Source: a virus
Direction: 5' to 3' (one strand)
Length of the DNA stretch: 64,000 nt
IMG/VR virus record: IMGVR_UViG_3300037042_006844
Location: 122,556 to 186,555 of that record
The position numbers and the translations under genes were made by a program. The notes beneath the pieces were generated by a model. The model saw only the letters and a program-made list of their open reading frames with translations, was not told the origin of the DNA and made no database searches. Shown here in pieces: positions 2,738-52,046 of this stretch; within the stretch, counting starts at the first letter, position 1, and every line of letters begins with the position of its first letter.

Positions 2738-3070
2738 CTAGTTTTTATCCCACCGCTTGCGCCATTTTTCTTTTTCTGATACCTTTTTGCCAGCCTCGGT
2801 GATTTCATATATCGGCTGACCATCGTCATCGCTGCCAACCACTTCTACATATCCTTTGCTGCAAAGATACTCCATCTGAATAGCATGGATGAATTGCGTG
2901 GCAAGCTCTCGATCCATACCAGTAGTTTTCATTAAATCACATAATGTGTTTTCGATTGTGACTTCTGTTTCCACAGCATCTGAATCTTTTGATAAACAAT
3001 GTGCTAGAAACTCGTCGTTTGTGCCAGAGAAAAAATCAGGGAATATAGTGCTATTGATCAATCTGTTCAT
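2738..3070 (-). CDS. hypothetical protein
   Basis: 110-aa ORF. Stop codon (cta on the plus strand) and C-terminus …WDKN verified from the sequence. Confidence 0.5.
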   Translation of the reverse strand: MNRLINSTIFPDFFSGTNDEFLAHCLSKDSDAVETEVTIENTLCDLMKTTGMDRELATQFIHAIQMEYLCSKGYVEVVGSDDDGQPIYEITEAGKKVSEKEKWRKRWDKN

Positions 3071-3588
3071 ATGATTGATGTTACCGCCGATTTTTCGGGT
3101 GTCAACTTGAAAAACTCCCGATACGCCGACCGAGGAATTTTCTGTTTCGGATATAAATTCCGCAATTCTTTTCCCGCAACAAATCGAACTTTTATTGTTG
3201 GAAACTCGGTGATGTCGGTGATTATGTATATCAATTCATCATAAATCTTTCGGTCTGCCGGTGACGCATGAACAGGATCATGAATCTTTCGACCACTGCC
3301 CACCATAAAGCTTGGAGCGAAATTGCAGCCACCTTTGGTAAAACATTTATGTTCAAAATATGTTTGATCCACTTTGTGCATGTGATCAAAGCCAGATCCA
3401 TTGACATAATCCAAACAGTCGAACCATTTGGTCAATTGCAATTGAATCAAAGGAGCACATGCCCGACCATCGCGAAACAATAGGTTGAGATCATCACGGG
3501 TCAGATCGCCCCAACTGCATTGTTCAATGGTGAACGTATAGATTTTATTGATATTAATTGTGGTCATATTATGATACATTTTTCGCAC
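3067..3588 (-). CDS. hypothetical protein
   Basis: 173-aa ORF whose end overlaps the start of the downstream gene by 4 nt. Confidence 0.5.
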   Translation of the reverse strand: MRKMYHNMTTININKIYTFTIEQCSWGDLTRDDLNLLFRDGRACAPLIQLQLTKWFDCLDYVNGSGFDHMHKVDQTYFEHKCFTKGGCNFAPSFMVGSGRKIHDPVHASPADRKIYDELIYIITDITEFPTIKVRFVAGKELRNLYPKQKIPRSAYREFFKLTPEKSAVTSII

Positions 3589-3719
3589 GATGTTGGGTCA
3601 TTCTGTCAAGTCTCCGCAACAGACGGTCAATCCGGCAGCAAAGACACAACCGATCACCACAGCGGCACAGCTTTGCAGTTTGGCGCATTGCATCGATGCG
3701 GCCTGGATAACCGTCGCGG

Positions 3720-3944
3720 TCATATCGAATCAGTTTTGAGAGTGACATCATTACATTTGATAAATAGTTTCAACACCCGACGTTCTGCCCGTTGAAGCCG
3801 CAGAAAAGCGGCACGAAGCTCACGCTTCGATACATTATGCTTTCGAGCCACCATCATGTCCATAGCCACTTGGCACATGAATTTGGCATGATCTTCATTG
3901 GCTGACCAACGCTCGACAACTGGGTCAATCTGTTTGGTTTTCAT
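3720..3944 (-). CDS. hypothetical small protein
   Basis: 74-aa ORF in the minus-strand gene block. Confidence 0.3.
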   Translation of the reverse strand: MKTKQIDPVVERWSANEDHAKFMCQVAMDMMVARKHNVSKRELRAAFLRLQRAERRVLKLFIKCNDVTLKTDSI

Positions 3945-3986
3945 TTCGGTATATGTTGTGTTATTTCTATATTCTTGGACACTACC

Positions 3987-4346
3987 TTAGTCATTCATCA
4001 CAGTGGAAGGATGATTCGGCAACCACTCCTGCTTGACCGTGATCTGCTGCCACAGATACATGCGAATCTCGAACTGTTCCCATGATGGCGAATCGTCAAA
4101 CCGAATCGTGGTGCCCGATTCACTAATCACTGCGTCATTCAACATGCCTTCCGTGATGCTGACAGCATCATCATCATCCTCGTATTCACCGAGCCAAATC
4201 ACCGTGCGGTGTGGGTGTTCGCCCTGAGGTTCAGAAAAGCAACTAATCATTTCCTTGCCCTTGTAAACGTGGAAAAGCACGGTTGCATTGAGCATCTGGC
4301 GATACAGACTTTTGACTTTGATCATGTCCATTTTGGTCTCACTCAT
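3987..4346 (-). CDS. hypothetical protein
   Basis: 119-aa ORF with an acidic EYEDDDDA stretch. Confidence 0.5.
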   Translation of the reverse strand: MSETKMDMIKVKSLYRQMLNATVLFHVYKGKEMISCFSEPQGEHPHRTVIWLGEYEDDDDAVSITEGMLNDAVISESGTTIRFDDSPSWEQFEIRMYLWQQITVKQEWLPNHPSTVMND

Positions 4347-4506
4347 ATAATTAAAGATACCACGCTTTTGATAGAGGTCAATAGCTTTAATAACATTATA
4401 AATTCAAACCAGGAGTTATATGACGAGTTTTGAACATGTATGCACTGTTATAGCAGAAAAAAGCTATAAATGACTGGACAATGATATGAGCTTGTTGGCC
4501 AACAAA

Positions 4507-4530
4507 AAACCCAGCTTTTGGCTGGGTTGC
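4507..4530 (-). terminator. terminator hairpin for the 4551..4889 gene
   Basis: AACCCAGC-TTTT-GGCTGGGTT followed by a T-run on the minus strand. An inverted copy of the same hairpin lies at about 4958-4982. Confidence 0.45.
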
Positions 4531-4550
4531 CGATTGCTGCAATGACCTGA

Positions 4551-4889
4551 TCAGTCCTTGCGATCCTTGCGAATTTTATCGACTTGCATGGTGCCGAAAT
4601 GGGGCATCATATCCTTTGGAAACCTCGGGTCCTGAGCACGAACCTTGACCTTGCCGTTGACGATGACGAGGTCTTTCATCGCGATGCGCCAACCAGCGGG
4701 AAGCTTGACCACATGGCCTGGGGCATTGTTCATGGACTGCGTCACCGTCAACTCGGCTGGTTCGGCGACGGTTGCGTTTGCCCAACTGCAAAACTTGTTG
4801 GCGTTGGCGTTGGTGAGAACCTCGCCATACTTGGCGATCTGCGCGGCTTTGACTGCTTTGTCGACTTTCTGTTGTTTCGTCATGCCCAC
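4551..4889 (-). CDS. hypothetical protein, leaderless
   Basis: 112-aa ORF. The probable ATG start is the third codon (MTKQQKVD…). It sits immediately downstream of a TTGACT-N17-TATTAT promoter. Confidence 0.5.
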   Translation of the reverse strand: MGMTKQQKVDKAVKAAQIAKYGEVLTNANANKFCSWANATVAEPAELTVTQSMNNAPGHVVKLPAGWRIAMKDLVIVNGKVKVRAQDPRFPKDMMPHFGTMQVDKIRKDRKD

Positions 4890-4918
4890 ATAATACAGGA
4901 ATCAGCAGCACAAGTCAA
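4890..4918 (-). promoter_or_regulatory. sigma70-like promoter (minus strand) giving a leaderless transcript
   Basis: On the minus strand: TTGACT (plus-strand 4913-18), a 17-nt spacer, TATTAT (plus-strand 4890-95), and the ATG 6 nt later. Confidence 0.45.
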
Positions 4919-5005
4919 CAGCTTTCGATAAAAAGGTCAACAAATAAGTTCTGGCCGCGATTGACCCAGCCAAAAGCTGGGTTTGATGCGTAGGTATATG
5001 ATCGA

Positions 5006-5290
5006 TTAATTATCGAGCGTCAACCACCCGGTCGCGGGATAATAGTTGTCGCCGAGGCGCAGAGTCCAAACGCCATGTTGCGGATGGAGCGGATGCTGAC
5101 AGCGAATGACGTAGGTCTTGATCCTGGGGTCTCTGTAGTTGGGTATTGTCCGCACGATCTCCACACGATAACCGATGGGGAGTTGAACTGCCGGACGCGT
5201 TCCAGAAAAAAGGTTCTCGGCAAAGGCGCAACACGCACAAGCCACCGTGGCATTCGGCACGAACTGGTTTAGAGTCTCTCTCATGCCCAA
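5006..5290 (-). CDS. hypothetical protein, leaderless
   Basis: 94-aa ORF (MGMRETLNQ…). It has the same duplicated promoter and start module as 4551..4889. Confidence 0.5.
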   Translation of the reverse strand: MGMRETLNQFVPNATVACACCAFAENLFSGTRPAVQLPIGYRVEIVRTIPNYRDPRIKTYVIRCQHPLHPQHGVWTLRLGDNYYPATGWLTLDN

Positions 5291-5319
5291 ATACTACAGG
5301 AATCAGCAGCACAAGTCAA
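5291..5319 (-). promoter_or_regulatory. sigma70-like promoter (minus strand), a duplicate of the 4890..4918 module
   Basis: TTGACT-N17-TAGTAT on the minus strand, followed by gggcATG. Confidence 0.45.
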
Positions 5320-5736
5320 CAGCTTTCGACACAAAAAGATGAAAATAATCCGGGGCTGGCCCGCGTGGCCGCAGTTTTTGTATCCTGTTGTTATTCAACG
5401 CTTTGCATACATATCGTTTTTGTGTTTGTTATCTTATTGTTGCGCAACACTTTATAGCAATATTCCTTGCGTTGTATCCTGTTGTGCTATAGTGTGTTAT
5501 GGTGTCAGCATAGTAACTGTATGGCTCTTTATGTATGCTGTTGCATGATAACAGGATGCAACTTTAATTTCTAGTGTGTTTGCTAACGTGTTGACCGCGA
5601 ACATGTTGCAGTGTTTGCAGGCATATACTGAGTCGTCTGTTTATTTTTTTGGATTATTGCTATAAACTCTTGATGATCAAACACTTGCGAATTTATATAC
5701 TCCCCGGCATATTGAGTCTATATAAACGCCGCTTTG

Positions 5737-5865
5737 CGTTGCATTGCTGCAATCATAACCTGTTTGCTTATGTATTGAAAACATTGGGGTTTTTACACTT
5801 TTACCATATGTCTGACTCGATTTGCAATGCAGCAATCATAACCTGTTTACTTATGTATTGAAAAT
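5737..5865. repeat. two 44-bp direct repeats, TTGCAATGCAGCAATCATAACCTGTTTrCTTATGTATTGAAAA
   Basis: Copies at about 5737-5780 and about 5821-5865, read directly from the sequence. Confidence 0.6.
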
Positions 5866-6744
5866 GCAGCCGCTAGAGTCTCGCTTGACCTTTTTATAAA
5901 CGAGTGTAAAATGGGTTTATGTGGTGGTCAGTGAACATAGACCCAGTTTAATATAGCAATTCTCAGTCTATATCGGTTAGGCAAGCACCATATTGAGTGC
6001 ATACTGGTTTCCAGCATAGCATATGAGCATCAATTCAGTCTATATGCATAGTTCCTCGACATACTGAGTCTATAACGCTGCAACTCAACATAGACTCGAT
6101 CATCAGATACACTCATTATAGCATGGCACTATAAGCGCAACTGAGCCTATCCATTGAAACAACAACGCCGCAACTCAATATGCATTGGAAATTCCGAAAA
6201 AAATTTTTTTGAACTCGACAAAAATCCAAAAAACAGTTTTGGTAATAGACATACATAATAGACCAGCAGAATTTCTAATAGTTGTGGCGACCTCTTTACC
6301 ATACACTGTGTGTAGTGTCAAGTTATAAGAATTTGTATAATAATTCGGTCAACTCCCTGAAAAATAAACAGCCCTGCTCCAGCACCTACCATATATACAG
6401 ACACCACACAGCACCACATCATGAGCATATACCCACACACTGCAAAAATGCTCAGGAACACAGCAAAAATATGCAAAAAAGCCAATGAAATCAGGGGTTT
6501 GCGCTAAAAATGGACGTTATTCTTCATAGTTAGTCTACTTTTATTCATGTGCATTCTATACCCCCTAGTAGATATACAACCCTTCTTACCATCAATAATC
6601 TGCATATTATTATTGCTATTAATTCCAGTTTACTCCATATATACAATTTCGTCACCCCTCTGTTGAGCTTTTTGCAAAATGACCCGGGGGCCTGTTTCAA
6701 ATTATGAGGGGGGGGGGGTTCCTCTCATACGCAGGGGGGCCTGT

Positions 6745-6925
6745 TGAGCCTCTTTGCGGATGTTAAGCTCTCTCTAGGCTTATGATATGTTGAGCTTCCC
6801 ATATATGTTGAGCCTCTTTGCGGATGTTGAGCTTAGGCATATATTGAGCTTAGGCTTAGGCATATATGTTGAGCCTTTTTGCGGATGTTGAGCTTAGGGG
6901 CTCTTATGATATGTTGAGTTGTTGG
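6745..6925. repeat. iteron array of (T)ATGTTGAGC(Y)T
   Basis: About 10 copies. Three carry the longer unit TGTTGAGCCTCTTTGCGGATGTTGAGCTT. Confidence 0.6.
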
Positions 6926-7244
6926 TGTTGGTGTTGCTGCAAGGGTCTGAGCTTTTTGCAAAATGACCCGGGGCCTGTTAAGCTCTCTCTCTCTTAGGCT
7001 TATATGATATGAGGGGGGGGGTCTGTTGTGGAGCCCCCACCTATGGGGAGGGGTTTGATGTCTGAGCTTGAAGCTACCTATACACTCTCTCTCTCTCCTA
7101 AGCTCTCTCTGTCTCTCTATCTCTTATGAGATGAGCCTATGTGTGTGAAACTGAAATGATGAGTGGCACAGGCAATGCTATACATATTGGTATTTTATAT
7201 TTTGGTGATGTGTTGACCGCGAACATTCCTTGAATTGAATTCAT

Positions 7245-7835
7245 ATGAACATTTTGATTCTCTACTTATATGGTATGACCCACATGAAAAGACTGGTGCA
7301 GTTGTTTGCTGCTCTCACAATCGGCATTCTAATAATACTATTTTCTACAGGATGTGACGGCAAGAAAAAGTCCACCTATGAATTTCGTAGTCTGCCCAAA
7401 AATGAAGCACTGGATGTTCTGATGTATACCAATGCTATTCGTCCATTGAAGTGCTTTCGTATGAGTGATAAAACATATGCCATACCCAGTGTTAAGTGGA
7501 TACAAGAAGTATTTACCCCCGAATTCAAGAACTACCTATTCCGAAACAACTTGAAAACTGTTCGGGACAGCATCAACGATTGTGACAAATATTGTTTACA
7601 TGCCCGCAGTGTTGCCAGTGTATTGTATAGCAAAGAAACCAAACGCATCCCAGGTGCTGCACTGGCTATGGGTGAGTTCGTGTATTGGTATGGTTTGGAT
7701 ATGCATGATATTGTATTCTTTCTGGCATATGACGAAACATATGGCGATCTGGTTATGGTATTTTATGAACCCATGATTCAAAACATCATCATCTTTGAAC
7801 CCAGGGATGCTGGTTGTGTGGATTGTATGATGTGA
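7245..7835 (+). CDS. putative lipoprotein
   Basis: Signal peptide plus lipobox (…ILFSTGCDGKKK). The likely start is the internal Met of MKRLVQLF (about 7287). Confidence 0.5.
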   Translation: MNILILYLYGMTHMKRLVQLFAALTIGILIILFSTGCDGKKKSTYEFRSLPKNEALDVLMYTNAIRPLKCFRMSDKTYAIPSVKWIQEVFTPEFKNYLFRNNLKTVRDSINDCDKYCLHARSVASVLYSKETKRIPGAALAMGEFVYWYGLDMHDIVFFLAYDETYGDLVMVFYEPMIQNIIIFEPRDAGCVDCMM

Positions 7836-10430: not shown

Positions 10431-10459
10431 TTGACCTGCCCCTAAATAAAGACTATACT
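10431..10459 (+). promoter_or_regulatory. sigma70-like promoter
   Basis: TTGACC-N17-TATACT, about 23 nt upstream of the ATG at 10482. Confidence 0.45.
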
Positions 10460-11992: not shown

Positions 11993-12448
11993 ATGAAGTA
12001 TCTAAAATCATTAGCATTGGCAACGTTGCTGGGTATATCGACCCTATCAGCACAAACATTTACCAATGTAGTTGATCAGCGAGTTGAATCGCACGAAGAG
12101 TTCAATTACAACTACAAAAACCACTCCCAGACCATAACCAATCCGTTGACATTTTTTGTTACGTTTTCGGATGGTTCATCCACGAATATATACGGCAAAT
12201 TGACTCACCAAGATAAAGAGCAAGTTGTGTTCTCTGGTATTGCCAGCACCAATCCGACGGTAATTATTCAACCAATCGATAATTTTTATGGAACCAAGCA
12301 AGGCAGTGAATGGAAATTCTATTTTCACACCAGTTCTCCACTAACGGTTCACAGTTGGGGTGTATCAACGATCCCAGAGCCGTCTGTGTTGACAATCACT
12401 GGTCTTGCGATGATAGCATTTGCATTTTTCAGGAGGCACAGAGTATGA
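11993..12448 (+). CDS. secreted protein with a PEP-CTERM sorting signal
   Basis: N-terminal signal peptide MKYLKSLALATLLGISTLSAQ. C-terminal PEP motif, TM segment and basic tail (IPEPSVLTITGLAMIAFAFFRRHRV). Confidence 0.55.
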   Translation: MKYLKSLALATLLGISTLSAQTFTNVVDQRVESHEEFNYNYKNHSQTITNPLTFFVTFSDGSSTNIYGKLTHQDKEQVVFSGIASTNPTVIIQPIDNFYGTKQGSEWKFYFHTSSPLTVHSWGVSTIPEPSVLTITGLAMIAFAFFRRHRV

Positions 12449-24854: not shown

Positions 24855-26051
24855 TCAATTGACACACGACCCTAAAGGGTCGGTGCTTGCCAGAGAAGAA
24901 CCTCTGACGATTGGTTGATTGACAGCAACCTGTCCATCGAGTGCGGAGCACGAGATGGAGTGTTCTTTGTCATATCTAAAAGTGATATTGTTCGCAGCAT
25001 TTAGGTCTGCGTCCAATACGACTTTATCAAGTCCATAATACCTACATCCTTTACGGACTCCGTTATCAAGACCACGATGGTCTAATTGGGATGTCCAGTG
25101 CGGATTAACGATGACCACTTGTTTTCCAAGTGATGCTGCCTTGTAGGTCAATATGTTCCTGAGAAGGAAATATGGCATTTGTGAATTGCGATTATTAAAT
25201 CTTCGTCCTTTGAACTTGGATTTAATCTTGGTCAAATCCTCAATCACAATGGTATTTGCCTTTGTGGTGAGAAGATGATTTACAACATTGTGTATGTAGT
25301 TCTTTGAAAAATGGTGTTCACGTCTGCGGAGTTTGGTTTGCTTAACTCTGGTAGAATGTGATTTGTGAGATTGGAGTTTTCTCTTGTTCCAACGTATCTT
25401 ACGTTTGGTTCGGTTAAACTCATTGCCTTTGATGATAATGCCTTCACTGGTAGAAGCAAGTCGTTTGAGTCCCAAATCAACTCCAATACATTTTTTGTTG
25501 TCTTGGAATGTTGTGGTATCGTCAAATACAATAGAGAGGAACACTCTATCGTCTCTTACAAAAAGAGAAGGGTCTTTGAGTTTGTATTTTGAAAATAATT
25601 CGTTGACCTTATTATACTTGAGAAGTTTGGCAGTGATACGACCATTACAAGTTGTCAGTTTAATGGCGTCTTGACCAATCCAAGTATAGATGCGAGTGTC
25701 CAGTTGGATGTTTAGTCGGTTTGTCTCAACTGGTTCTGTGATTTTATGGCAATTGGAACGAAGAGATTTGTATTTTGCAACCACGTCTTGTTCTGCCTTA
25801 ATGACAAACTGACTTGGAAGCATTGGAAGTTGTTCTCGAACCATCTTATAACATCTTTGGTGAAGAGGCATAAGACCATTACAGGACTTCATTCCAAATC
25901 GGATTTTAGATATGATATTGAAAGCATCACGTTTCAACGATAGTGATTTGATGAGAGATTGTTTATCCTCATCATTTTCAAAAATCAGTTGAACATTGTA
26001 TGTTTTCATTATTACTGGATATACATATTGTGAAGAAACAGAAAACAACAA
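24855..26051 (-). CDS. tnpB: TnpB-like RNA-guided nuclease (compact lineage without a canonical CxxC zinc ribbon)
   Basis: RuvC-like motifs (IGVDLGLKRL, …IVIEDL…, DADLNAANNI). The likely start is the internal Met of MKTYNVQLIF. Confidence 0.75.
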   Translation of the reverse strand: MLFSVSSQYVYPVIMKTYNVQLIFENDEDKQSLIKSLSLKRDAFNIISKIRFGMKSCNGLMPLHQRCYKMVREQLPMLPSQFVIKAEQDVVAKYKSLRSNCHKITEPVETNRLNIQLDTRIYTWIGQDAIKLTTCNGRITAKLLKYNKVNELFSKYKLKDPSLFVRDDRVFLSIVFDDTTTFQDNKKCIGVDLGLKRLASTSEGIIIKGNEFNRTKRKIRWNKRKLQSHKSHSTRVKQTKLRRREHHFSKNYIHNVVNHLLTTKANTIVIEDLTKIKSKFKGRRFNNRNSQMPYFLLRNILTYKAASLGKQVVIVNPHWTSQLDHRGLDNGVRKGCRYYGLDKVVLDADLNAANNITFRYDKEHSISCSALDGQVAVNQPIVRGSSLASTDPLGSCVN

Positions 26052-26130
26052 ACTATTTTGAGAAAGTGAGATATTTTCGTTGCTCCTCCCCTACCCTAAA
26101 GGGATAGGGGTTTCCGCAACGAGTGAGAAT

Positions 26131-27237
26131 ATGAAGATAGACATTTCAGCAATTGACCGCTCACAATTTATGGTGCATGAGCATGTTGTGAACGGCGAGG
26201 TCGTTTATTTGGTTCACCCAAAAAATATGGGAGTAAAATGGACTAATGACAATATACATTTGAGATCGAGTATATGGGACAGCGATGGCAATTTGGTGAG
26301 TGCCAGCTTCAAAAAATTCACCAACTGGGGAGAGAATCCTGAGAATTTTCCTGTTCCAGAGTCGTTGCGAAACGCATGTGTTGTGGAGAAGCTCGACGGA
26401 AGCACTTTAATTGTCAGTAAGTATAAGGGCAATTATATTCTTAGAACCCGTGGAACCACAGATGCTGCCAAACTGGACAATGGTTATGAGTTGGAGCAGT
26501 TTAAGCAGACCATTTTGCCTAAACTGTTGGATGTTCATTTGGTTGCTGGAGATACGTGGAAGTATTCATTCTTGTTTGAGTGGGTCAGTCCCGTAAACAA
26601 AATTGTATTAAACTACGGAGATTCTCCAGACTGGTTTTTGATCGGTATCATTTATCATGGGGACTATTCTTTGATTGATCAACTTACGTTGGACAATTTA
26701 GCTTGGCAACATGGTTTGAAACGCCCAACTGTTTACAGCTTTCCAACCATTGAGCAATTATTGAAGGATGTTGATGCTTGGAAGCTCAAGGAGGGCGTGG
26801 TCGTTTACAGCAATCGTGATCAAATGCTGCACAAAGTCAAGGGGGCGTGGTATCTTGCATTGCACCACATGAAGAGCGAGTTGGCGAGTGTTGAGAAAGT
26901 GATGGATGTTTGGTTGGATCAAAACATGCCTACATACAATGCTTTTTATGATTACATTGCGACCACGTTCGATTTTGAGTTGGCAGAGCAGTGCCGTGGA
27001 ACCATCAGCAATCTTTGTGATGCTCGTAAAGAGGTTGATAAGATTGTTGCTGCGATGGCAGATTTCGTGGAGTCGAAAGTGCGTTGTCTGCCGTCACGCA
27101 AAGAGCAAGCACAGCTTGTATTGGGTTCTTATGGTAACACCAACCGTTCGGCGTATGTGTTCGCACTACTCGACGGCAAGACGCTAACTAAAGATCAATA
27201 CAAGAAATTGATGTTCCAAGTAATAATGAAAAAGTGA
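26131..27237 (+). CDS. rnlA: RNA ligase 1 (T4 RnlA/gp63 family)
   Basis: Motif I VVEKLDGSTLIVSKYKGNYILRTRGT (T4: LTKEDGSLVS…KSKGS). Also FKKFTNWGENPE, FLFEWVSPVNKIVLNY and EGVVVYS…HKVKGAWYLALH, which match T4 Rnl1 blocks. ATG at 26131; the track's upstream start lies inside the IS hairpin. Confidence 0.75.
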   Translation: MKIDISAIDRSQFMVHEHVVNGEVVYLVHPKNMGVKWTNDNIHLRSSIWDSDGNLVSASFKKFTNWGENPENFPVPESLRNACVVEKLDGSTLIVSKYKGNYILRTRGTTDAAKLDNGYELEQFKQTILPKLLDVHLVAGDTWKYSFLFEWVSPVNKIVLNYGDSPDWFLIGIIYHGDYSLIDQLTLDNLAWQHGLKRPTVYSFPTIEQLLKDVDAWKLKEGVVVYSNRDQMLHKVKGAWYLALHHMKSELASVEKVMDVWLDQNMPTYNAFYDYIATTFDFELAEQCRGTISNLCDARKEVDKIVAAMADFVESKVRCLPSRKEQAQLVLGSYGNTNRSAYVFALLDGKTLTKDQYKKLMFQVIMKK

Positions 27238-29048: not shown

Positions 29049-29076
29049 TTGACTTTTTTTAACTTCGTGCTATTAT
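29049..29076 (+). promoter_or_regulatory. sigma70-like promoter (TTGACT-N16-TATTAT), ATG 7 nt downstream (leaderless)
   Basis: Read from the sequence. Confidence 0.45.
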
Positions 29077-29082
29077 TATATT

Positions 29083-29316
29083 ATGAGCGAACAACATTTT
29101 TTTGGACCGTCGTGGAATCCAGCAATCAGAGATTTATTGAATCACTTAAAAAATCTTCAAGACGTTGCTGATTATCGTGCTCGGTTGATCACCAACAACT
29201 TTTATGCTCACGAAACTGAGGAAGAACAAACGTTGCGTCAAGCAAAGGCTCAAGCCGCAGCAGATACATATGCGTATTGCATCAGCTGTATTATGGATTT
29301 GAATCGAAAAATCTGA
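29083..29316 (+). CDS. hypothetical protein
   Basis: 77-aa ORF. Confidence 0.4.
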   Translation: MSEQHFFGPSWNPAIRDLLNHLKNLQDVADYRARLITNNFYAHETEEEQTLRQAKAQAAADTYAYCISCIMDLNRKI

Positions 29317-30463: not shown

Positions 30464-30661
30464 ATGAAAACAAAAACATATAAATGCCACGACGTATCAT
30501 TCAATTTCAGCAAAATGGATGAGGACACACTGTTTCGGATGTGGACCCACTATTGCGGCGGGTCTGCATCCGAATCGAAAACAATAAGTGCATTGATTGA
30601 AAATATAGCGCATCTGCGTGGATTCGATGTCACTAAATGGGAAGCAAGAGAATCGGATTGA
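30464..30661 (+). CDS. hypothetical protein
   Basis: 65-aa ORF. Confidence 0.35.
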   Translation: MKTKTYKCHDVSFNFSKMDEDTLFRMWTHYCGGSASESKTISALIENIAHLRGFDVTKWEARESD

Positions 30662-30685
30662 CAATTCGAGAGATCGTGCTATTTT
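30658..30685 (+). promoter_or_regulatory. sigma70-like promoter (TTGACA-N16-TATTTT), ATG 7 nt downstream
   Basis: Read from the sequence. Confidence 0.45.
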
Positions 30686-30691
30686 GATATT

Positions 30692-31072
30692 ATGAAAATT
30701 GAACTAACACCACAGCAAGTCCACTCCGTAGTATTTAACTCTCCTTGGGAAACTCGAACCGCAGTTTTTGATCAGATAATGGTGCTCGCCGAAAAGGGTG
30801 CTCAAGAGCCACCTCTGCCAAAAGTGGTGCCGCCCGTGGAACCGGGTTGTGACAGTGGAGTAAATGCACTGTGTGATAATGAGTCTATTTCCGAATTACT
30901 GGCAACCGTCACTCAGTATGAAAATTCATACGGCGATAATATTATCAAAACTCGAATCGGAATGTGGATGCGTGCTATACCAAACCTCTCAGCAGAAAAC
31001 GCCCTAGAATTATGCAATCGTTTGCGAAACGCTCAGTTGTATTATCAGATTAAGAATTTTGATACAATATGA
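30692..31072 (+). CDS. hypothetical protein
   Basis: 126-aa ORF. Confidence 0.45.
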   Translation: MKIELTPQQVHSVVFNSPWETRTAVFDQIMVLAEKGAQEPPLPKVVPPVEPGCDSGVNALCDNESISELLATVTQYENSYGDNIIKTRIGMWMRAIPNLSAENALELCNRLRNAQLYYQIKNFDTI

Positions 31073-32567: not shown

Positions 32568-32789
32568 ATGGCAAAGAAACTCGTAATCAAATGTGTGGTG
32601 TGTGACAAATCCGATAATTTTTCGGATTCCAAAGACGTTACCCAGGCAAGATGGAAAATTATTGGTTGGAATATCGGTCAAGACGAACCCATATGCACAT
32701 GCAACAAATGTGATTATTTTGATCAACCAAAAAAGCAAGCAAAGTCGAGCGTTGACAAAACAAAAAAAGCTGCTAAGATAACACCATGA
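32568..32789 (+). CDS. small zinc-ribbon protein
   Basis: CVVCDK…CTCNKCDYFD. Confidence 0.4.
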   Translation: MAKKLVIKCVVCDKSDNFSDSKDVTQARWKIIGWNIGQDEPICTCNKCDYFDQPKKQAKSSVDKTKKAAKITP

Positions 32790-40158: not shown

Positions 40159-41556
40159 ATGAATAAAAACATCTGTTTAACTACTGACAGCTACAAGCTA
40201 AACCATTGGAATCAATACCCTCGTAACACCGAGATTGTGTATAGTTATTTCGAGTGTCGCAAAGGAGCAACCTTCGCCGAAACCCCGTTCTTCGGGCTTC
40301 AATACATTATTAAAAGCCACCTTGAGGGCGCAGTCGTGACCAGGGAGAATATTGAGAAGGCAGCTAGGCTTTGCAAATTCCATTTTGGCGACGAGCGTTA
40401 CTTCAACCGTGAGGGCTGGGAATACATCCTCAATAATTGGGGAGGTAAACTTCCAGTCGTTATCAAGGCTGTTGAGGAGGGAACTGTGGTTCCGGTCAAC
40501 AACGTGTTGATGACCATTGAGAATGTGGGCGGTGCCATGACGGCTTGGCTCACCAATTTCCTTGAGACGATTTTGTCCCAAGTATGGTATCCCACAACCG
40601 TTGCAGCTTTGAGCCGTGAGGTCAAAAAGAATATCAAAGAATATCTTGATTTAACCAGTGAGGGCGGACTGCTCAATTTCGGACTGCATGATTTTGGGTT
40701 CCGGGGGGCATCGTCTTGGGAATCTGCTGGTATTGGTGGTGCGGCTCATCTAATCAACTTCCTTGGCACCGATACTTTGGTCGCGATGGAGGTCGCCATG
40801 AACTATTACAATGCAAACCTCGAAGGATTAGCATACAGTGTGGCAGCAACCGAGCACAGTGTGATGACTGCTTTGGGCAAGGACGGTGAGGAAACGGTCG
40901 TCGAGAATCTGCTCAATGAATATCCCACGGGTATTCTTTCTGTGGTCTCCGATAGCTACGACATCTACAATTTTGTTAACAACATCGTTGGACGCAAATT
41001 TAAGGATTGGATTCTTGAGCGTGATGGTGTGTTCGTGGTTAGACCAGATTCCATTACTCCGAGCCATCCAACTCCTGAGCAGGAAATGGTTTGGATTATG
41101 TGGAGTCTTTGGGACAATTTTGGTGGCATTATAAACAGCAAGGGATTTAATGTTATCAATCCCAAGGTTCGTGTTCTTTGGGGCGATGGAATCGATTTGG
41201 AAGGTATCAAAAAGATTCTGTGTGCTGTTGCCGATGCTGGATTTGCAACCGAAAATATCGCATGTTTCGGAATGGGTGGCGGACTCTTACAGAAAGTCAA
41301 TCGTGATACACAGCGTTGTGCATTCAAATCGTCTGCACAGTATCGCAACGGTCAGTGGTTTGATATTTTCAAGAGTCCCAAGGATATTTCCAAGGCTTCC
41401 AAAAAGGGCAAGCTCAAGCTCACCAAGATTGACGGCAAGTTCGTTACTGTTGGTGAAAACGATCCCGGTGAGGATTATTTGAAGGTTGTGTTTACGAATG
41501 GTGTGCTGGTCAAGGAAATTGACTTTGCAACCGTTCGCAAGAACGCTGCTCTATGA
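40159..41556 (+). CDS. nicotinamide phosphoribosyltransferase family protein (NAMPT/NadV; possibly the Namat of a NARP1 pathway)
   Basis: Full-length match to the NAMPT family: LTTDSYKLNHW, VYSYFECR, FGLQY, KAVEEGTVVP, HDFGFRGASS, GTDT, EHS, VVSDSYDIYN, RPDSI, GDGID, FGMGGGLLQKVNRDTQRCAFK and EIDFATVRKNAAL. Confidence 0.85.
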   Translation: MNKNICLTTDSYKLNHWNQYPRNTEIVYSYFECRKGATFAETPFFGLQYIIKSHLEGAVVTRENIEKAARLCKFHFGDERYFNREGWEYILNNWGGKLPVVIKAVEEGTVVPVNNVLMTIENVGGAMTAWLTNFLETILSQVWYPTTVAALSREVKKNIKEYLDLTSEGGLLNFGLHDFGFRGASSWESAGIGGAAHLINFLGTDTLVAMEVAMNYYNANLEGLAYSVAATEHSVMTALGKDGEETVVENLLNEYPTGILSVVSDSYDIYNFVNNIVGRKFKDWILERDGVFVVRPDSITPSHPTPEQEMVWIMWSLWDNFGGIINSKGFNVINPKVRVLWGDGIDLEGIKKILCAVADAGFATENIACFGMGGGLLQKVNRDTQRCAFKSSAQYRNGQWFDIFKSPKDISKASKKGKLKLTKIDGKFVTVGENDPGEDYLKVVFTNGVLVKEIDFATVRKNAAL

Positions 41557-42422: not shown

Positions 42423-43403
42423 ATGAACGTGAACACTCTAAAGTTATTTGCGGGAACCAGCAACGTTCCACTTGCTGAACGTATAGCTTCCAATTTTTTG
42501 AACTCCAAACTCGGCGATATTTTTCACCACAAATTTCCCAGCGGAGAAACATATTGCCAATTTCGTGAGAATATTCGTGGGTGTGATGTGTTTTTGATTC
42601 AAAGCATCACTGCTCCCGCCAACGAAAATTTGATGGAATTGTTGGTGATGGCGGATGCTGCTAGACGCGCCAGTGCAGACCGCATTACTGCAATCATTCC
42701 CTATTTTGGCTATGCCAGACAAGATAGAAAAGAGAAAAGCAGGGTGCCGATCACTGCCAAGCTCGTTTTGGACTTGATCGAAGCGAGCGGAATTGACCGT
42801 GTGGTAACTATGGATTTGCACAGTCCACAGGTCAGTGGCTTCACCAACCTTCCGTTCGACCATCTGACCTTTGAACCCGTATTGAACAATTGGATTAGAA
42901 ACAAATACCATAGTTTGGCTTTGCGAGACAGTGTTATTTTGATGGCACCCGATGTTGGAGCCGTCAAACGTGTGGAAAAATACGCAACCACGCTTGGCAC
43001 TGACTTTGGATTCATCAGCAAAAAGCGTGTGGGTGATGATACGGTTGAATTGCAAAGCATTGTTGGTGACGTGGCTGACAAGCACGTTGTTATCATCGAT
43101 GATCTGACCGAGAGTTGCGGAACCATGATTCAAGCTGCCAAGGCTTGCAAACACAATGGAGCCAAAAATGTGACATGTGCGGTGACTCATGGAGCTTTCA
43201 CGAATATTGGTGTGGAACGTTTGTGTGAAACATCCAGCATCGATCATTTGGTTCACAGCAACACAGTGAATCATGCATGGGACACAAACATGGATATGTG
43301 CAAAGACCCTCGCAGCATCACACAGCTTGATGTCAGCATGTTGTTTGCCAAAGCAATCAGCAGCATTCACAACAACGAAAGCATCAGTGAATTATTTGTA
43401 TGA
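42423..43403 (+). CDS. ribose-phosphate pyrophosphokinase family protein (PRPS, or the ADPR pyrophosphokinase Adps of a NARP1 pathway)
   Basis: PRPS architecture: N-terminal domain, VVTMDLHSPQVSGFTNLPFDHL (flexible loop) and VVIIDDLTESCGTMIQAAK (PRPP-binding loop). The latter deviates from the canonical DDMIDTAGT. Confidence 0.8.
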   Translation: MNVNTLKLFAGTSNVPLAERIASNFLNSKLGDIFHHKFPSGETYCQFRENIRGCDVFLIQSITAPANENLMELLVMADAARRASADRITAIIPYFGYARQDRKEKSRVPITAKLVLDLIEASGIDRVVTMDLHSPQVSGFTNLPFDHLTFEPVLNNWIRNKYHSLALRDSVILMAPDVGAVKRVEKYATTLGTDFGFISKKRVGDDTVELQSIVGDVADKHVVIIDDLTESCGTMIQAAKACKHNGAKNVTCAVTHGAFTNIGVERLCETSSIDHLVHSNTVNHAWDTNMDMCKDPRSITQLDVSMLFAKAISSIHNNESISELFV

Positions 43404-43657: not shown

Positions 43658-43732
43658 GGGGTCTAAGCTTTAATGGTGAAGCAAGCGGCTTTTAACCGCT
43701 AGAAGACGGATCGTTACCGTCAGGCCCTACCA
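43658..43732 (+). tRNA. tRNA-Lys (anticodon UUU)
   Basis: Manual fold. Acceptor stem GGGGTCT/AGGCCCT with G1-U72 and U5-G68 wobble pairs. D arm GCTT-TAATGGTG-AAGC. Anticodon stem-loop AGCGG-CTTTTAA-CCGCT. T arm GACGG-ATCGTTA-CCGTC. ACCA encoded. Confidence 0.65.
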
Positions 43733-43748
43733 AATTTACAGTTAAAAT

Positions 43749-43824
43749 GGGGTTATCGTCTAATGGCTAGGACGGGAGACTTTCAATCTCCAAATCGTGG
43801 GTTCAATTCCCCGTAGCCCTACCA
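43749..43824 (+). tRNA. tRNA-Glu (anticodon UUC), with a T stem that pairs poorly
   Basis: Acceptor stem GGGGTTA/TAGCCCT (with wobbles). D arm GTCT…GGAC. Anticodon stem-loop GGAGA-CTTTCAA-TCTCC. T loop TTCAATT. ACCA encoded. Only 3 bp of the T stem pair in my fold. Confidence 0.45.
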
Positions 43825-44154
43825 TTTTCACTGTCAGGTCAATAATGACAGACCGTTAGCAATAAGCGGTGTCAATGTGCAAAAAAATTCAAGTGGTATA
43901 GCACATCTGACGTTATAGATTCCACTTGATGGTGGAGGGGCGCGGAATAGCCCCCTAGACAAACAGATTGACGGATTGATATAATCGAAGGATATTATAT
44001 CTAATGCAACAGATAAATCCGATATAATGGTTTGTCGAGAGTTTGACATAACTCTACAACAACATATGTCTGGTTGCGGGGATGAGCCAATGGTGTCTCG
44101 GTTATCCGATTGGATCGAGATTCAATAACCCTACAATCGGACCAATTTTATAAT

Positions 44155-44231
44155 TGCGGAATAGAGTTCTGGTGAACTCCGGTGTCTCATAAGCACTCGC
44201 TAGAAAAGTTCGATTCTTTTTTCCGCTACCA
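44155..44231 (+). tRNA. tRNA with anticodon CAU (Met or Ile2 type); mismatch at positions 1:72
   Basis: D arm GAGT-TCTGGTGA-ACTC. Anticodon stem-loop GGTGT-CTCATAA-GCACT, with G-U pairs. T arm AAAAG-TTCGATT-CTTTT. Acceptor 3' strand TTCCGCT plus ACCA. Confidence 0.5.
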
Positions 44232-44236
44232 ATTTC

Positions 44237-44330
44237 GGTTCTGTAGTTTAACTGGTAAAACCCCATACTTATAATATGGTAATCGCTAGATGTGCGTGAC
44301 TTCTCGGTTCGAATCCGAGCAGAACCACCA
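44237..44330 (+). tRNA. class II tRNA with a long variable arm and an apparent UAU anticodon
   Basis: Acceptor stem GGTTCTG/CAGAACC plus A and CCA. D arm GTTT-AACTGGTA-AAAC. Anticodon stem-loop CCATA-CTTATAA-TATGG. Variable arm of about 23 nt with a CGC/GCG stem. T arm CTCGG-TTCGAAT-CCGAG. Confidence 0.55.
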
Positions 44331-44394
44331 AATTTATGACGAACGTGTCATAAAAAAACAAAGTTACATTGAATTAATACTAATATAATAGAAT

Positions 44395-44721
44395 ATGAAA
44401 AAGATACTTCTAACAGTTGCAACCCTCTCTCTTCTTTTGACCGCTAGTGCGGTTGATACCAAGGAACTCTACGATTCACAATGCTCCAAGTGTCATGGAA
44501 CAAATGGCAATGGTGTGACCAAGATGGGTCAAAAGCTCAATGCGAAGGATTGGACCGATGTCAAGATTCAAGCCGCAATGACCGAGACCAACATGGTCAA
44601 GGCAATTAAGGTGGGCATTAAAGATGCCGAGGACAAGACTCGCATGAAGGCATATTCAGATATGACTGATGCCGATGTGACGAATTTGGTTACGTATATC
44701 AAAACCTTCAAAAAGCAATAA
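44395..44721 (+). CDS. small secreted c-type cytochrome
   Basis: Signal peptide and a single CSKCH haem-binding motif (CxxCH). Confidence 0.65.
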   Translation: MKKILLTVATLSLLLTASAVDTKELYDSQCSKCHGTNGNGVTKMGQKLNAKDWTDVKIQAAMTETNMVKAIKVGIKDAEDKTRMKAYSDMTDADVTNLVTYIKTFKKQ

Positions 44722-44739
44722 CATCGTATATAACATCGT

Positions 44740-45069
44740 ATGAAGAAATCATTGATGCTCGGGGTTTTGATTCTCAGCGGAATGTTGTGTCAAGCACAAA
44801 ACGCTGGAACCAACGAATTGTATAACAGCAAGTGCAGCAAGTGCCATGCAAAAGATGGCTCGGGCAACACACTGATGGGCAAAAAGTATAGTGCGAAAAA
44901 CTATACAGATGCAGCCGTCCAAAACAAGCTTACTGATGAAGCTTTTGATAAGTCCCTCAAAGAGGGTTACACCGATGCCGAAGGCAAGAAAGTAATGCAG
45001 GCTTTTCCAGAGCTTACGGCACTGGAGCGCAAGGAACTCATCAAAACGATGCGGTCCTTCAAGAAATAA
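44740..45069 (+). CDS. small secreted c-type cytochrome, a paralogue
   Basis: Signal peptide and LYNSKCSKCHAKDG. Paralogous to 44395..44721. Confidence 0.65.
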   Translation: MKKSLMLGVLILSGMLCQAQNAGTNELYNSKCSKCHAKDGSGNTLMGKKYSAKNYTDAAVQNKLTDEAFDKSLKEGYTDAEGKKVMQAFPELTALERKELIKTMRSFKK

Positions 45070-45088
45070 GATTGACATATCAATTTAT

Positions 45089-45161
45089 GCGGAATTAGTG
45101 TCATGAGGAGCACGGCTATCGACCAGATAGCAAGGTTGGTGCAAGTCCAAATTCCGCTCCA
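45089..45161 (+). tRNA. degenerate tRNA-like element with G at position 33, an ACC anticodon loop and a 4-bp T stem; possibly a pseudo-tRNA
   Basis: Acceptor stem GCGGAAT/ATTCCGC plus U and CCA. D arm GTGT…GCAC. Anticodon stem-loop GCTAT-CGACCAG-ATAGC. T arm TTGG-TGCAAGT-CCAA. Confidence 0.3.
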
Positions 45162-45169
45162 CTTTTTCA

Positions 45170-45245
45170 GGGCTCTTAGCTTAATTGGTTAAGCAGCAAA
45201 CTCATAATTTGTTGAGTGGGGGTTCGAGTCCCTCAGGGCCCACCA
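45170..45245 (+). tRNA. tRNA-Met (anticodon CAU)
   Basis: Acceptor stem GGGCTCT/AGGGCCC (with U-G). D arm GCTT-AATTGGTTA-AAGC. Anticodon stem-loop GCAAA-CTCATAA-TTTGT. T arm GGGGG-TTCGAGT-CCCTC. Discriminator A plus CCA. Confidence 0.7.
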
Positions 45246-51090: not shown

Positions 51091-51200
51091 CTCAGGGGGT
51101 GGTGTTGATTTTTATAGTTGACACCCGCCCATCTATGATCTATGATCCATTTATGCAGAACACAAACAAAAAATTTGACAAAGACCCGATTGGTTCCAGA

Positions 51201-52046
51201 ATGAAATCTTCTTACGAGGATCGGACTAGATATTGTCTGCCTCGTAGAACATACACCATTTTGCGTCTCGATGGCAAATCGTTTCATTTTTACACCCAAG
51301 ACCTCGACAAACCTTTTGATGCGGGTTTTATCGAAGACATGAATCGAGCCGTTGTCAACACGATTCATGAAATTTCACAAGGTGTTGCTTTTGCCTACGC
51401 ACAGTCTGACGAAATTTCAATTCTGCTCACCGATTTTGAGAATGATCAAACAGATGCTTGGTTTGGTGGCAATATTCAAAAAATGAGTAGTGTTGCTGCC
51501 AGCATTATGACTGCTCAATTCAACCGTTTCAGACATATTAGACATTACAACCAAGTTCTTGGGACTTTGAATTTGGCAGACCCAACAATTGCTGCGGATG
51601 TGAATGCAAAAAATCGACTGTCGCCAATTTGGCTGCCGTATTTTGATTGCCGAGCGTTTACCATTCCCGACAGAACCGAAGTTATGAATTATTTTCGGTG
51701 GAGGCAGCAGGATTGCATTCGCAACAGTTTGAGCATGGTCGCACAAAGCATGTTCAGTCACGGCGAATTACAGAATAAAAGCCAAATTGACATGCACGAA
51801 ATGTTGCACCAAAAAGGTGTGAACTGGGCAACCGATTATACCGCTGCCCAGAAGAACGGTAGAATTTTTGTGAAAGAAACCAAACCGACTGAACATATGA
51901 GCAATGTGATAAGTTGGGAGGCTGATATGGCGAACTACAAAGTGGTTCCGGTTCCAACGCACATCGTAAAATGGCAAGCCAATGAAGCTTGGGTCTTTAG
52001 CAAAGACGAAGGCAAACTGCTTGACATGATTCCTAAATATGCATAA
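51201..52046 (+). CDS. Thg1-like protein (tRNA-His guanylyltransferase / 3'-5' polymerase family)
   Basis: TYTILRLDGKSFHFYTQDLDKPFDAGFIEDMNRAVVNTIHEISQGVAFAYAQSDEISILL aligns with the Thg1 core (RVDGRAFHKFS…KPND…DIVLAYGQSDEYSF). Start placed at MKSSYED, by analogy with the Thg1 N-terminus; the track ORF starts at 51099. Confidence 0.7.
   Translation: MKSSYEDRTRYCLPRRTYTILRLDGKSFHFYTQDLDKPFDAGFIEDMNRAVVNTIHEISQGVAFAYAQSDEISILLTDFENDQTDAWFGGNIQKMSSVAASIMTAQFNRFRHIRHYNQVLGTLNLADPTIAADVNAKNRLSPIWLPYFDCRAFTIPDRTEVMNYFRWRQQDCIRNSLSMVAQSMFSHGELQNKSQIDMHEMLHQKGVNWATDYTAAQKNGRIFVKETKPTEHMSNVISWEADMANYKVVPVPTHIVKWQANEAWVFSKDEGKLLDMIPKYA

Follow-up and report, generated by a model that had tools for sequence, protein, structure and literature searches.

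We analysed a window of 64,000 nucleotides (nt) from an uncultured virus, positions 122,556 to 186,555 of IMG/VR record IMGVR_UViG_3300037042_006844, and concentrated on a stretch free of open reading frames (ORFs) that lies at 5291-7244 (about 1.9 kb). Coordinates without further mention are those of the window, and features given without a sign have no strand assigned. The stretch is a divergent intergenic region. It extends from the start of a leftward gene to an ATG at 7245, with small minus-strand genes on its left (2738-5290) and a long series of plus-strand genes on its right; leftward early genes begin at about 5284/5290 and rightward ones at 7245, and the region occupies the same syntenic place in relatives. 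Between 5458 and 7244 there is no ORF of at least 75 amino acids in any frame, and no other gap of this kind in the window is as large; the runner-up, of 785 nt, is the transfer RNA (tRNA) cluster. A sequence-only reading of this DNA had described 5590-7230 as non-coding, without a plausible ORF. The description holds, but the interval was drawn too narrowly. Coding potential was rejected on the grounds that no ORF is conserved, that the small ORFs behind the promoter P2 (see below) vary between strains, and that most indels between the region and a close relative have lengths not divisible by three (16, 22, 4, 4, 2, 2, 1, 5 and 14 nt).

The window comes from an uncultured jumbo phage of about 300 kb, and a protein encoded to the right of the region is also found on a 303,564-bp contig of the Joint Genome Institute (JGI). 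Searches of a phage DNA collection gave no DNA similarity to known phages, and no cultured relative was found; the closest protein matches in cultured phages are at 24.5% identity for a helicase and about 26% for rIIA. Metagenomes, on the other hand, contain more than 1,800 homologues of the helicase at 66-99% identity, which places the phage in a large uncultured clade. About 45 related loci (designated L and a number) were gathered by means of the helicase and two flanking proteins. IMG/VR searches with the two flanking proteins, with a 26-mer repeat and with the core of the promoter P_R, both described below, yielded nothing or chance matches. Gene order is kept in the relatives: the helicase is followed by a minus-strand block of small genes, an ORF-free gap of 0.8-2.1 kb, and plus-strand genes. 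Every relative whose sequence extends far enough, down to 72% helicase identity, has the gap in this place, and it is repetitive in each of them; its absence, or a lack of repeats, in close relatives was what the sequence-only reading had named as evidence against its proposal. The small flanking genes are ORFans with a fast turnover between relatives, and it is because they turn over so quickly that the gap appears as a stable landmark.

Parts of the region are as conserved as the best coding DNA. Two blocks, 5340-5625 and 6055-6180, are 92-94% identical or higher to L008 and L052 (92-94% to L008 for the first), and the segments between them decay. A stretch from 5464 to 5703 is 100% identical to L084, L085 and L086. 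Altogether, the conserved parts show 92-100% identity where the neighbouring genes show 60-90%. It is conceivable that such a region has no function and is made of repeat debris, or that it marks a recombination hot spot at the junction of two gene modules, as the flanking genes turn over rapidly, the repeat units are reshuffled and variable in copy number, and (CT)n tracts are restricted to one lineage. This explanation is hard to reconcile with the strong purifying selection that these identities indicate, and with a promoter block and a layout that are kept to 72% helicase identity; the conservation pattern already largely refutes it, and we regard it as very improbable.

The typical promoter of the phage, as seen throughout the window, is of sigma-70 type, TTGAC(A/T)-N16/17-(TGn)TAnnnT, with an ATG 6-9 nt past the -10 hexamer (examples are at 29049-29084, 30658-30694, 32752-32788, 57492-57455 (-) and 5319-5282 (-)). 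Given this short distance, many genes appear to have leaderless or near-leaderless mRNAs, which may be a clue to the host. The leftward promoter of the region, P_L (5291-5319, minus strand; TTGACT-17-TAGTAT), is of this leaderless type, with the ATG of the first leftward gene 6 nt downstream, and has equivalents in L010 and L017. It is duplicated at 4890-4918, where it serves a paralogous gene; promoter and upstream segment (about 36-45 nt) are repeated at 4890-4934 and 5291-5335, before the leftward genes 4551-4889 and 5006-5290, and the Logan contig L006 breaks exactly at this duplication. A rightward promoter, P2 (5885-5912, +; TTGACC-16-TAAAAT), has only a non-conserved 10-codon ORF behind it, and its -10 hexamer is TATAAT in L008, L084, L085 and L086.

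The sole deeply conserved block of the region is a third promoter, P_R, which is rightward, sigma-70-like and near consensus (block 6311-6380, promoter 6316-6345, +). Its sequence, (T/G)TGTCAAG..TG-TATAAT-AAtTCGGTCAAC..CCT.AAAA..AACAGCCC, with AA(A/T)TCGGTCA after the TATAAT, is conserved in nine loci representing seven lineages. With a sequence model of the block, every relative of at least 72% helicase identity that reaches the site gives a single hit, and more distant loci with long flanks give none. Across loci, the first ORF lies 530-900 nt past P_R (about 900 nt in the window) and appears to have signals of its own. One is a candidate promoter, P3 (7056-7084, +; TTGATG-17-TATACA), recognised by eye only and followed by a CT-rich leader comparable to that of the promoter at 10431-10459. 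The other is a match to the sigma-54-type -24/-12 pattern (TGGCAC-N5-TTGC), TGGCACaggcaATGC (7164-7178, +), which is located 67 nt before the first rightward ORF; its GG-N10-GC spacing is correct, and L007, L084 and L085 share it; it is a single site and the only exact match of the window, with about 0.5 expected by simple counting, and its significance is uncertain. P_R is probably not a messenger promoter, since 530-900 nt without an ORF follow it, since its C-rich, G-poor RNA would make a poor messenger, and since the first ORF has its own signals.

What is kept downstream of P_R, in all seven lineages examined, is composition and not sequence: sequence conservation of the transcript ends after its first 35 nt or so. 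Positions +12 to +160 are A+C-rich and G-poor (G 6-16%), positions +161 to +320 are A+T-rich in all lineages, and positions +321 to +470 are G-rich (G 31-58%). The window follows this order, with an A+C-rich segment at 6352-6500 (+; A 42%, C 30%, G 13%), an A+T-rich segment at 6500-6660 (30-36% GC), a candidate unwinding element that carries a conserved TATTATTGCTATTAAT motif, and a cluster of G-runs at 6684-7053 (+) composed of G5 at 6686, G11 at 6708, G6 at 6734, G9 at 7013 and GGGGAGGGG at 7045, the lengths of which vary between strains. In seven of seven lineages the first run of at least six Gs is found +327 to +375 nt from P_R (+368 in the window), and always on the plus strand. Such runs are almost absent from the flanks, taken at up to 18 kb per locus; the seven gaps together contain 18 copies of GGGGGGT, and 57 kb of upstream flank contain none. 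The long G-runs and the (CT)n tracts noticed in the sequence-only reading are present, the latter as (CT)4-6, and G-runs of at least nine and (CT)n of at least five are found nowhere else in the window. That reading had included neither this fixed promoter-to-G-run layout nor the several sigma-70-like promoters, which are the main conserved features. Two G-tracts of relatives deserve mention. In L051, whose helicase is 89% identical, a C14 run at 4600-4613 marks the left edge of the gap, on the strand opposite to that of the right-half G-runs. In L017 (18420-18495), paired G-run modules GAGGGGGGGGTGGGGG...GGTGGGGGGGTG of about 75 nt separate the -35-like TTGTCAAG from the TATAAT hexamer of the conserved promoter, an arrangement that looks like the insertion or displacement of a G-run module.

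The conserved blocks (5340-5625 and 6055-6180) and the P_R transcript might also be non-coding RNAs, for example regulatory or sponge RNAs, in which the repeats would be RNA motifs. Indeed, the blocks are non-coding yet conserved like coding DNA, P2 and P_R have no ORF behind them, and the plus strand of 5345-5630 folds modestly better than shuffled sequences (z = -2.6). However, Rfam gives no match at E<=1 in 4800-7800, and in seven relatives none at gathering score save for a tRNA elsewhere; no intrinsic terminators delimit candidate RNAs; and, by inspection, the few substitutions in a long helix (5378-5399/5540-5561) are not compensatory. For P_R transcripts, the fold energies are no better than those of shuffled sequences (z = -1.2, +2.1 and +0.9). 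A long-range hairpin between their CA-rich 5' and GU-rich 3' segments was considered and rejected: minimum-energy folds do pair the two, yet with a z no better than that of shuffles. Together with the conservation of composition but not of sequence past the first 35 nt, these results make RNA function an unlikely explanation.

Repeats occupy much of the remaining sequence, and those listed in the sequence-only reading are all present, far above chance. One set is an iteron-like array at 6740-6920, in which about ten (A/G)TGTTGAGC(C/T)T units, all on the plus strand, are spaced by 18-19 or 24-27 nt and form 38-nt super-units every 61-64 nt. Seven of the eight exact window copies of TGTTGAGC are clustered within 233 nt (6661-6893), all on the plus strand, where chance would give 2.4 in the entire window; a degenerate form, T[GA]TT[GA]AG[CT], is found 13 times, and the 38-nt extended unit three times, in agreement with the roughly ten units, three of them extended, counted in the sequence-only reading. 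In this the ATGTTGAGC-type units resemble iteron origins, which have three or more direct repeats of one orientation spaced regularly by about 17-22 bp; their conserved core is just 8-9 bp. A CRISPR-like mini-array was rejected, because what separates the 38-nt units (61-64 nt period) is not unique 'spacer' DNA but more of their own sub-motifs (ATGTTGAGCTT, TTAGGC); the window also showed no cas genes. A repeat search also identified an exact 26-nt pair, TGAGCTTTTTGCAAAATGACCCGGGG (6664-6689 and 6948-6973, +). Four (CT)n tracts (6768, 6983, 7085 and 7103, within 6768-7124, +) belong to this phage and its close strains only and are not conserved beyond them.

To the left of P_R, the 44-bp direct repeats of the sequence-only reading correspond to a 43-nt pair at 5739-5781 and 5822-5864 (+; 93% identity), each with a TTGCA..TGCAA palindrome and a ATAACCTGTT site. 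They are followed at 5959-6098 by TGAGTCTATA-type units of mixed orientation, partly organised as 30-nt tandem units, with an extra copy at 5708-5722 and one inverted copy at 6091-6098. With at most one mismatch, TGAGTCTATA is found four times on the plus strand of the region and twice elsewhere in the window. The earlier count of about eight was generous: four are strong, one is inverted and two to three are degenerate. The inverted pair GAGTCTAT/ATAGACTC, expected around 6060-6095, is located at 6066-6098 and overlaps the second conserved block (6055-6180), which contains an 8-bp inverted repeat and inverted ATRTTGAG sites at 6084 and 6174; 11 of the 13 window copies of ATRTTGAG, a broader core of the TGTTGAGC units, lie in the region, two of them inverted. 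The previously reported AT-rich stretch is also present (6150-6300, 31-32% GC) and includes an A/T tract at 6186-6236 (A7T7, AAAAATCCAAAAAA; 31-32% GC) with an equivalent in L010.

The first conserved block (5340-5625) contains three ATCCTGTT sites, direct at 5384 and 5478 and inverted at 5550, as well as the left copy of the 17-mer GTGTTGACCGCGAACAT. Near its left edge, GGCTGGCCCGCGTGGCCGC (5354-5373, +) comprises two TGGCC boxes, and the same place in relatives is occupied by two to six direct TGGCCAC boxes. These are located just upstream of the leftward promoter in L011 (17158-17225), L010 (6680-6710) and L017 (17810-17835), and L011 has six copies of the 12-nt CTTGGCCACAAC. Exact copies of the 17-mer are located at 5588-5604 and at 7210-7226 (both +), the right one 19 nt ahead of the ATG at 7245; 0.16 sites are expected even at three mismatches. 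The sequence-only reading had correctly observed it at both edges, and had taken it to bound the region. As a boundary, or as a target-site duplication, we rejected it: its left copy, which is conserved in L008, L052 and L084-L086, lies inside a conserved non-coding block that extends about 250 nt further left, and related TTGACCGCGA/TTGACCCGACAT motifs recur in relatives. The possibility that its TTGACC serves as a -35 hexamer was also discarded, since inspection revealed no conserved -10 after it. Five IMG/VR matches to the 17-mer are all unrelated chance occurrences. From these comparisons, it is best described as a recurring motif, not an element boundary.

Altogether, the repeat families of the region are the ATGTTGAGC units, the TGAGTCTATA units, (A/T)(A/T)CCTGTT sites, TTGCAA palindromes and TGGCC(A)C boxes, whose copy number and sequence shift between lineages. 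CCTGTT is common to several of them, with 8 of its 22 window copies inside the region (3% of the sequence), and AACCTGT is present in seven of seven lineages. The iteron-like arrays, by contrast, are lineage-specific: L010 has about 12 tandem units of 30-36 nt with a TTGCAAT core, plus (A/T)(A/T)CCTG sites.

Two independent assemblies, L084 and L085, span the whole region at about 97% identity to the window, and the differences are concentrated in the repeats. Both are short-read assemblies, so single-base differences in homopolymers may be errors. The G-run at 6708 is 11 nt long in the window, 12 in L084 and 11 in L085; those at 6734 and 7013 measure, in the same order, 6, 7 and 7 nt, and 9, 11 and 10 nt. 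The (CT)n tracts at 6983 and 7085 have six units in the window and four in each of the other two strains. The 30-nt TGAGTCTATA unit is present in four copies in the window, at least six in L084 and five in L085, and the iteron block at 6740-6800 is rearranged in both. These differences support the slippage supposed in the sequence-only reading, and G-runs and (CT)n behave like contingency loci in that their lengths differ between near-identical strains.

Many contigs of relatives stop inside or beside the region: those of L011, L012, L013, L017 and L028 end in G-run modules, and others at repeats. The window itself, L010, L030, L084 and L085 read straight through. Since the ends coincide with G-runs and repeats, we interpret them as assembly failure, and their interpretation as genome termini was rejected. 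The region could nevertheless act at a DNA end, as an injection stop or first-entering end similar to the iss of phage T5, as a pac site, or as a set of oriented Chi-like, G-rich sites that shield a nearby end from host exonuclease. Its architecture does resemble that of the T5 iss, many independent contigs end in or near it, and its G-rich motifs (GGGGGGTGG) are strictly oriented. Against this, the contig ends are accounted for by assembly, paired DnaA boxes are missing, and there is no terminase gene nearby in the window; the partition or packaging site mentioned in the sequence-only reading found no specific evidence either. We therefore hold a DNA-end function to be quite unlikely, slightly more so than the RNA explanation.

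From these comparative data, the region is certainly a real cis-acting, non-coding and repeat-rich hub from which sigma-70-like promoters would direct early transcription outward in both directions. By analogy with known systems, we propose that this divergent early-promoter hub may also be a transcription-activated, iteron-type replication origin, closest to T4 oriE and oriF, with a probability of about 0.4. The proposal is based on a promoter aimed at an A+T-rich stretch, unidirectional iterons, a point of transcriptional divergence and lineage-specific repeats, which match T4 oriE and oriF/oriG, and on a cluster of non-template G-runs at a fixed distance, an arrangement that, from what is known of ColE1 and of the mitochondrial light-strand promoter and conserved sequence block II (LSP-CSBII), stabilises an RNA-DNA hybrid. 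As in oriF/oriG, P_R leads into A+T-rich DNA in all lineages, here 160-320 nt downstream, a longer distance than that in T4. The origin-like architecture perceived in the sequence-only reading is supported as far as iterons, A+T-rich DNA, divergence point and early-type promoter are concerned; there is no recognisable initiator gene next door, and there are no DnaA boxes. An early protein of the phage would bind the iterons and the A+T-rich segment would melt. The untranslated P_R transcript would then form a persistent hybrid, G-rich RNA on C-rich template, and this hybrid would prime leading-strand synthesis, on the models of T4 oriF/oriG, ColE1 RNA II and LSP-CSBII. The repeats may double as operators of the divergent early promoters.

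A more specific version, which we put forward as speculative and on balance improbable, is that this clade of uncultured freshwater-type jumbo phages starts replication in the ColE1/mitochondrial style. A host-type promoter would produce an untranslated, G-poor RNA of about 350 nt that runs through an A+T-rich segment into hypervariable non-template G-runs, where a stable R-loop, possibly a hybrid G-quadruplex (G4), would end transcription and supply the primer, beside lineage-specific iterons for an initiator. If this were true, variation in G-run length would tune origin firing between strains.

Several observations weigh against an origin. No initiator, primase or polymerase gene adjoining the region is recognisable by Pfam or PHROG, the 20 nearest proteins having no match in these databases save for the helicase; this SNF2-like helicase, 3.3 kb away, is the nearest recognisable replication-type gene. 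An initiator could still be hidden among the neighbouring ORFans. The DnaA box TTATCCACA, at up to one mismatch, has zero sites in 5291-7244 and a window total equal to chance, with the limit that the host's own box may differ. The cumulative GC skew has its minimum near 6-7 kb, but within the window skew tracks gene orientation, and the minimum is therefore uninformative. The A+T-rich segments are only moderately so (30-32% GC at 6150-6300 and 6550-6650 versus about 42% for the window). A canonical four-tract G4 motif is absent in the window phage, where just two G4Hunter windows reach 1.5, contrary to the idea in the sequence-only reading that the tracts could form G4. G-run modules also recur in later intergenic spacers rightward in L010, L011 and L030, which would suit a role in gene expression at least as well as a unique origin. 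Finally, in T4 itself no link between the iterons and oriE activity has ever been established (PMC3016281).

A rival explanation is a purely transcriptional hub, made of divergent early promoters and operator arrays for phage regulators and devoid of any replication role. The long C-rich, G-poor leader of P_R would be a Rho-loading or attenuator segment that gates read-through into the rightward genes, and G-runs and (CT)n would be pause, antitermination or phase-variable elements. There are three to four sigma-70-like promoters, the -10 of P2 drifts to consensus in relatives, TGGCC(A)C boxes and ATCCTGTT sites lie directly upstream of P_L, and the A+C-rich, G-poor leader is conserved and unstructured. 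The same G-run modules before later genes in the three relatives just named, the CT-rich leader that is also found behind the promoter at 10431, and tract lengths that vary between strains as in contingency loci all point in this direction. Other features fit it less well. In a gene-dense phage, 1.9 kb would be a very long stretch to devote to promoters and operators; P_R is 530-900 nt away from a first ORF that appears to have its own signals; a unidirectional array of about ten sites at 18-19 nt resembles initiator-binding sites more than operators; and no regulator is identifiable among the neighbours. We consider this explanation tenable but tentative, and nearly as likely as that of an origin.

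Other genes of the window include rIIA/rIIB, DNA and RNA ligases and the SNF2-like helicase. The pair formed by NAMPT (40159-41556) and PRPP synthetase (42423-43403), which belong to nicotinamide adenine dinucleotide (NAD) salvage, the Thg1-like tRNA-His guanylyltransferase (51099-52046) and the T4-type RNA ligase (26080-27237) suggest, from their assignments, tRNA-repair and NAD-related functions. Five tRNAs are clustered at 43658-45245, among which tRNA-Ile (anticodon TAT; 44237-44330, +) is unusually long, at 94 nt. Two TnpB-like genes (24855-26051 and 60856-62058, both minus) encode OrfB_IS605 and Cas12f1-like TNB domains, and the second additionally has an HTH_OrfB_IS605 domain. A GIY-YIG/NUMOD3 homing-endonuclease-like gene lies beside the helicase block in L084 (8955-9728), L085 (8393-9166) and L086 (5961-6734), and was not seen in the corresponding left end of the window.

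Among the rightward genes, the first (7245-7835, +) encodes a 196-amino-acid protein with a lipoprotein-type signal (..ILFSTGC), which may be an early superinfection-exclusion lipoprotein. L084 and L085 carry a 4-nt insertion at its annotated ATG, so that translation may in fact begin further downstream, at the ATG of 7275 or 7284. Further right, 11993-12448 (+) encodes a protein of 151 amino acids with an N-terminal signal peptide and a C-terminal tail (..PEPS..hydrophobic..RRHR) like a PEP-CTERM sorting signal, which may be a hint on the host group.

Hardly any jumbo phage has a known replication origin or early-control region, and no uncultured one does. The region provides a clade-wide landmark, with one conserved promoter, a fixed promoter-to-G-run distance and identifiable repeat families, and it explains assembly breaks in these phages. 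If it is an origin, replication state could be estimated from the coverage of metagenomes, the cognate initiator could be sought among the ORFans nearby, and the unexplained oriE iterons of T4 would have a counterpart for comparison. If it is regulatory only, it defines the promoter grammar, sigma-70-type with largely leaderless genes, of a large group of phages.

No known origin, RNA or repeat element is homologous to the region in sequence, and the comparison with known systems is one of architecture. In ColE1 RNA II and in mitochondrial LSP-CSBII, a promoter is followed by non-template G-runs that stabilise an RNA-DNA hybrid primer, in the latter through an R-loop/G-quadruplex. The region shares with them a promoter a few hundred nt before non-template G-runs, an untranslated transcript and a conserved promoter-to-G-run distance. 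It differs in that the replicons are different and without homology, that ColE1 RNA II is structured whereas the P_R RNA shows no special structure, and that the canonical G4 motif is absent in this phage.

The resemblance to the origins of T4 is broader. T4 oriE has evenly spaced direct repeats that relatives keep at syntenic places, and it requires an early promoter; oriF and oriG combine a promoter with an A+T-rich unwinding element, and their transcript forms an R-loop primer; all three are near points of transcriptional divergence (PMC3016281). The common traits are a large virulent phage, origin-type elements at a transcriptional divergence, the absence of DnaA boxes, a promoter of the host sigma-70 type that leads into an A+T-rich stretch, and evenly spaced short direct repeats that are syntenic in relatives and differ in sequence. 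There is no sequence similarity, however, and the scale differs: minimal T4 origins are about 100 bp, with 12-nt repeat units, whereas the present region has 1.9 kb and at least five repeat families. Moreover, T4 origins lack the conserved A+C-rich segment and the G-run cluster 330-375 nt past the promoter, and the promoter here is of unmodified sigma-70 type, without a MotA box.

Iteron-type theta origins of plasmids and of the phage satellite PLE, the latter with a RepA_N initiator (PMC8263062), resemble the region in being non-coding direct-repeat arrays of lineage-specific sequence that are restructured between strains. Unlike them, the region has no recognisable adjacent Rep or initiator gene, a core of 8-9 bp and many more repeat families, in a replicon that is a virulent-type phage of about 300 kb.

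The T5 iss is an untranslated region of 1662 bp, with many direct and inverted repeats, beside the pre-early genes; its order is kept among relatives and that of the neighbouring ORFs is not, and its function is itself a hypothesis (bioRxiv 10.1101/866236). Here too, a large untranslated region with ordered repeats and palindromes lies beside the earliest genes, and its layout outlasts the neighbouring early ORFs. The iss, however, sits in a long terminal repeat with eight paired DnaA boxes, of which there are none here, and it lacks a G-run cluster. By architecture, the region would thus be a phage non-coding origin or early-control region, of a kind already known, and what is unusual is the clade-wide fixed layout of promoter, A+C-rich, A+T-rich and G-run segments; should the R-loop primer system prove true, it would represent a new variant.

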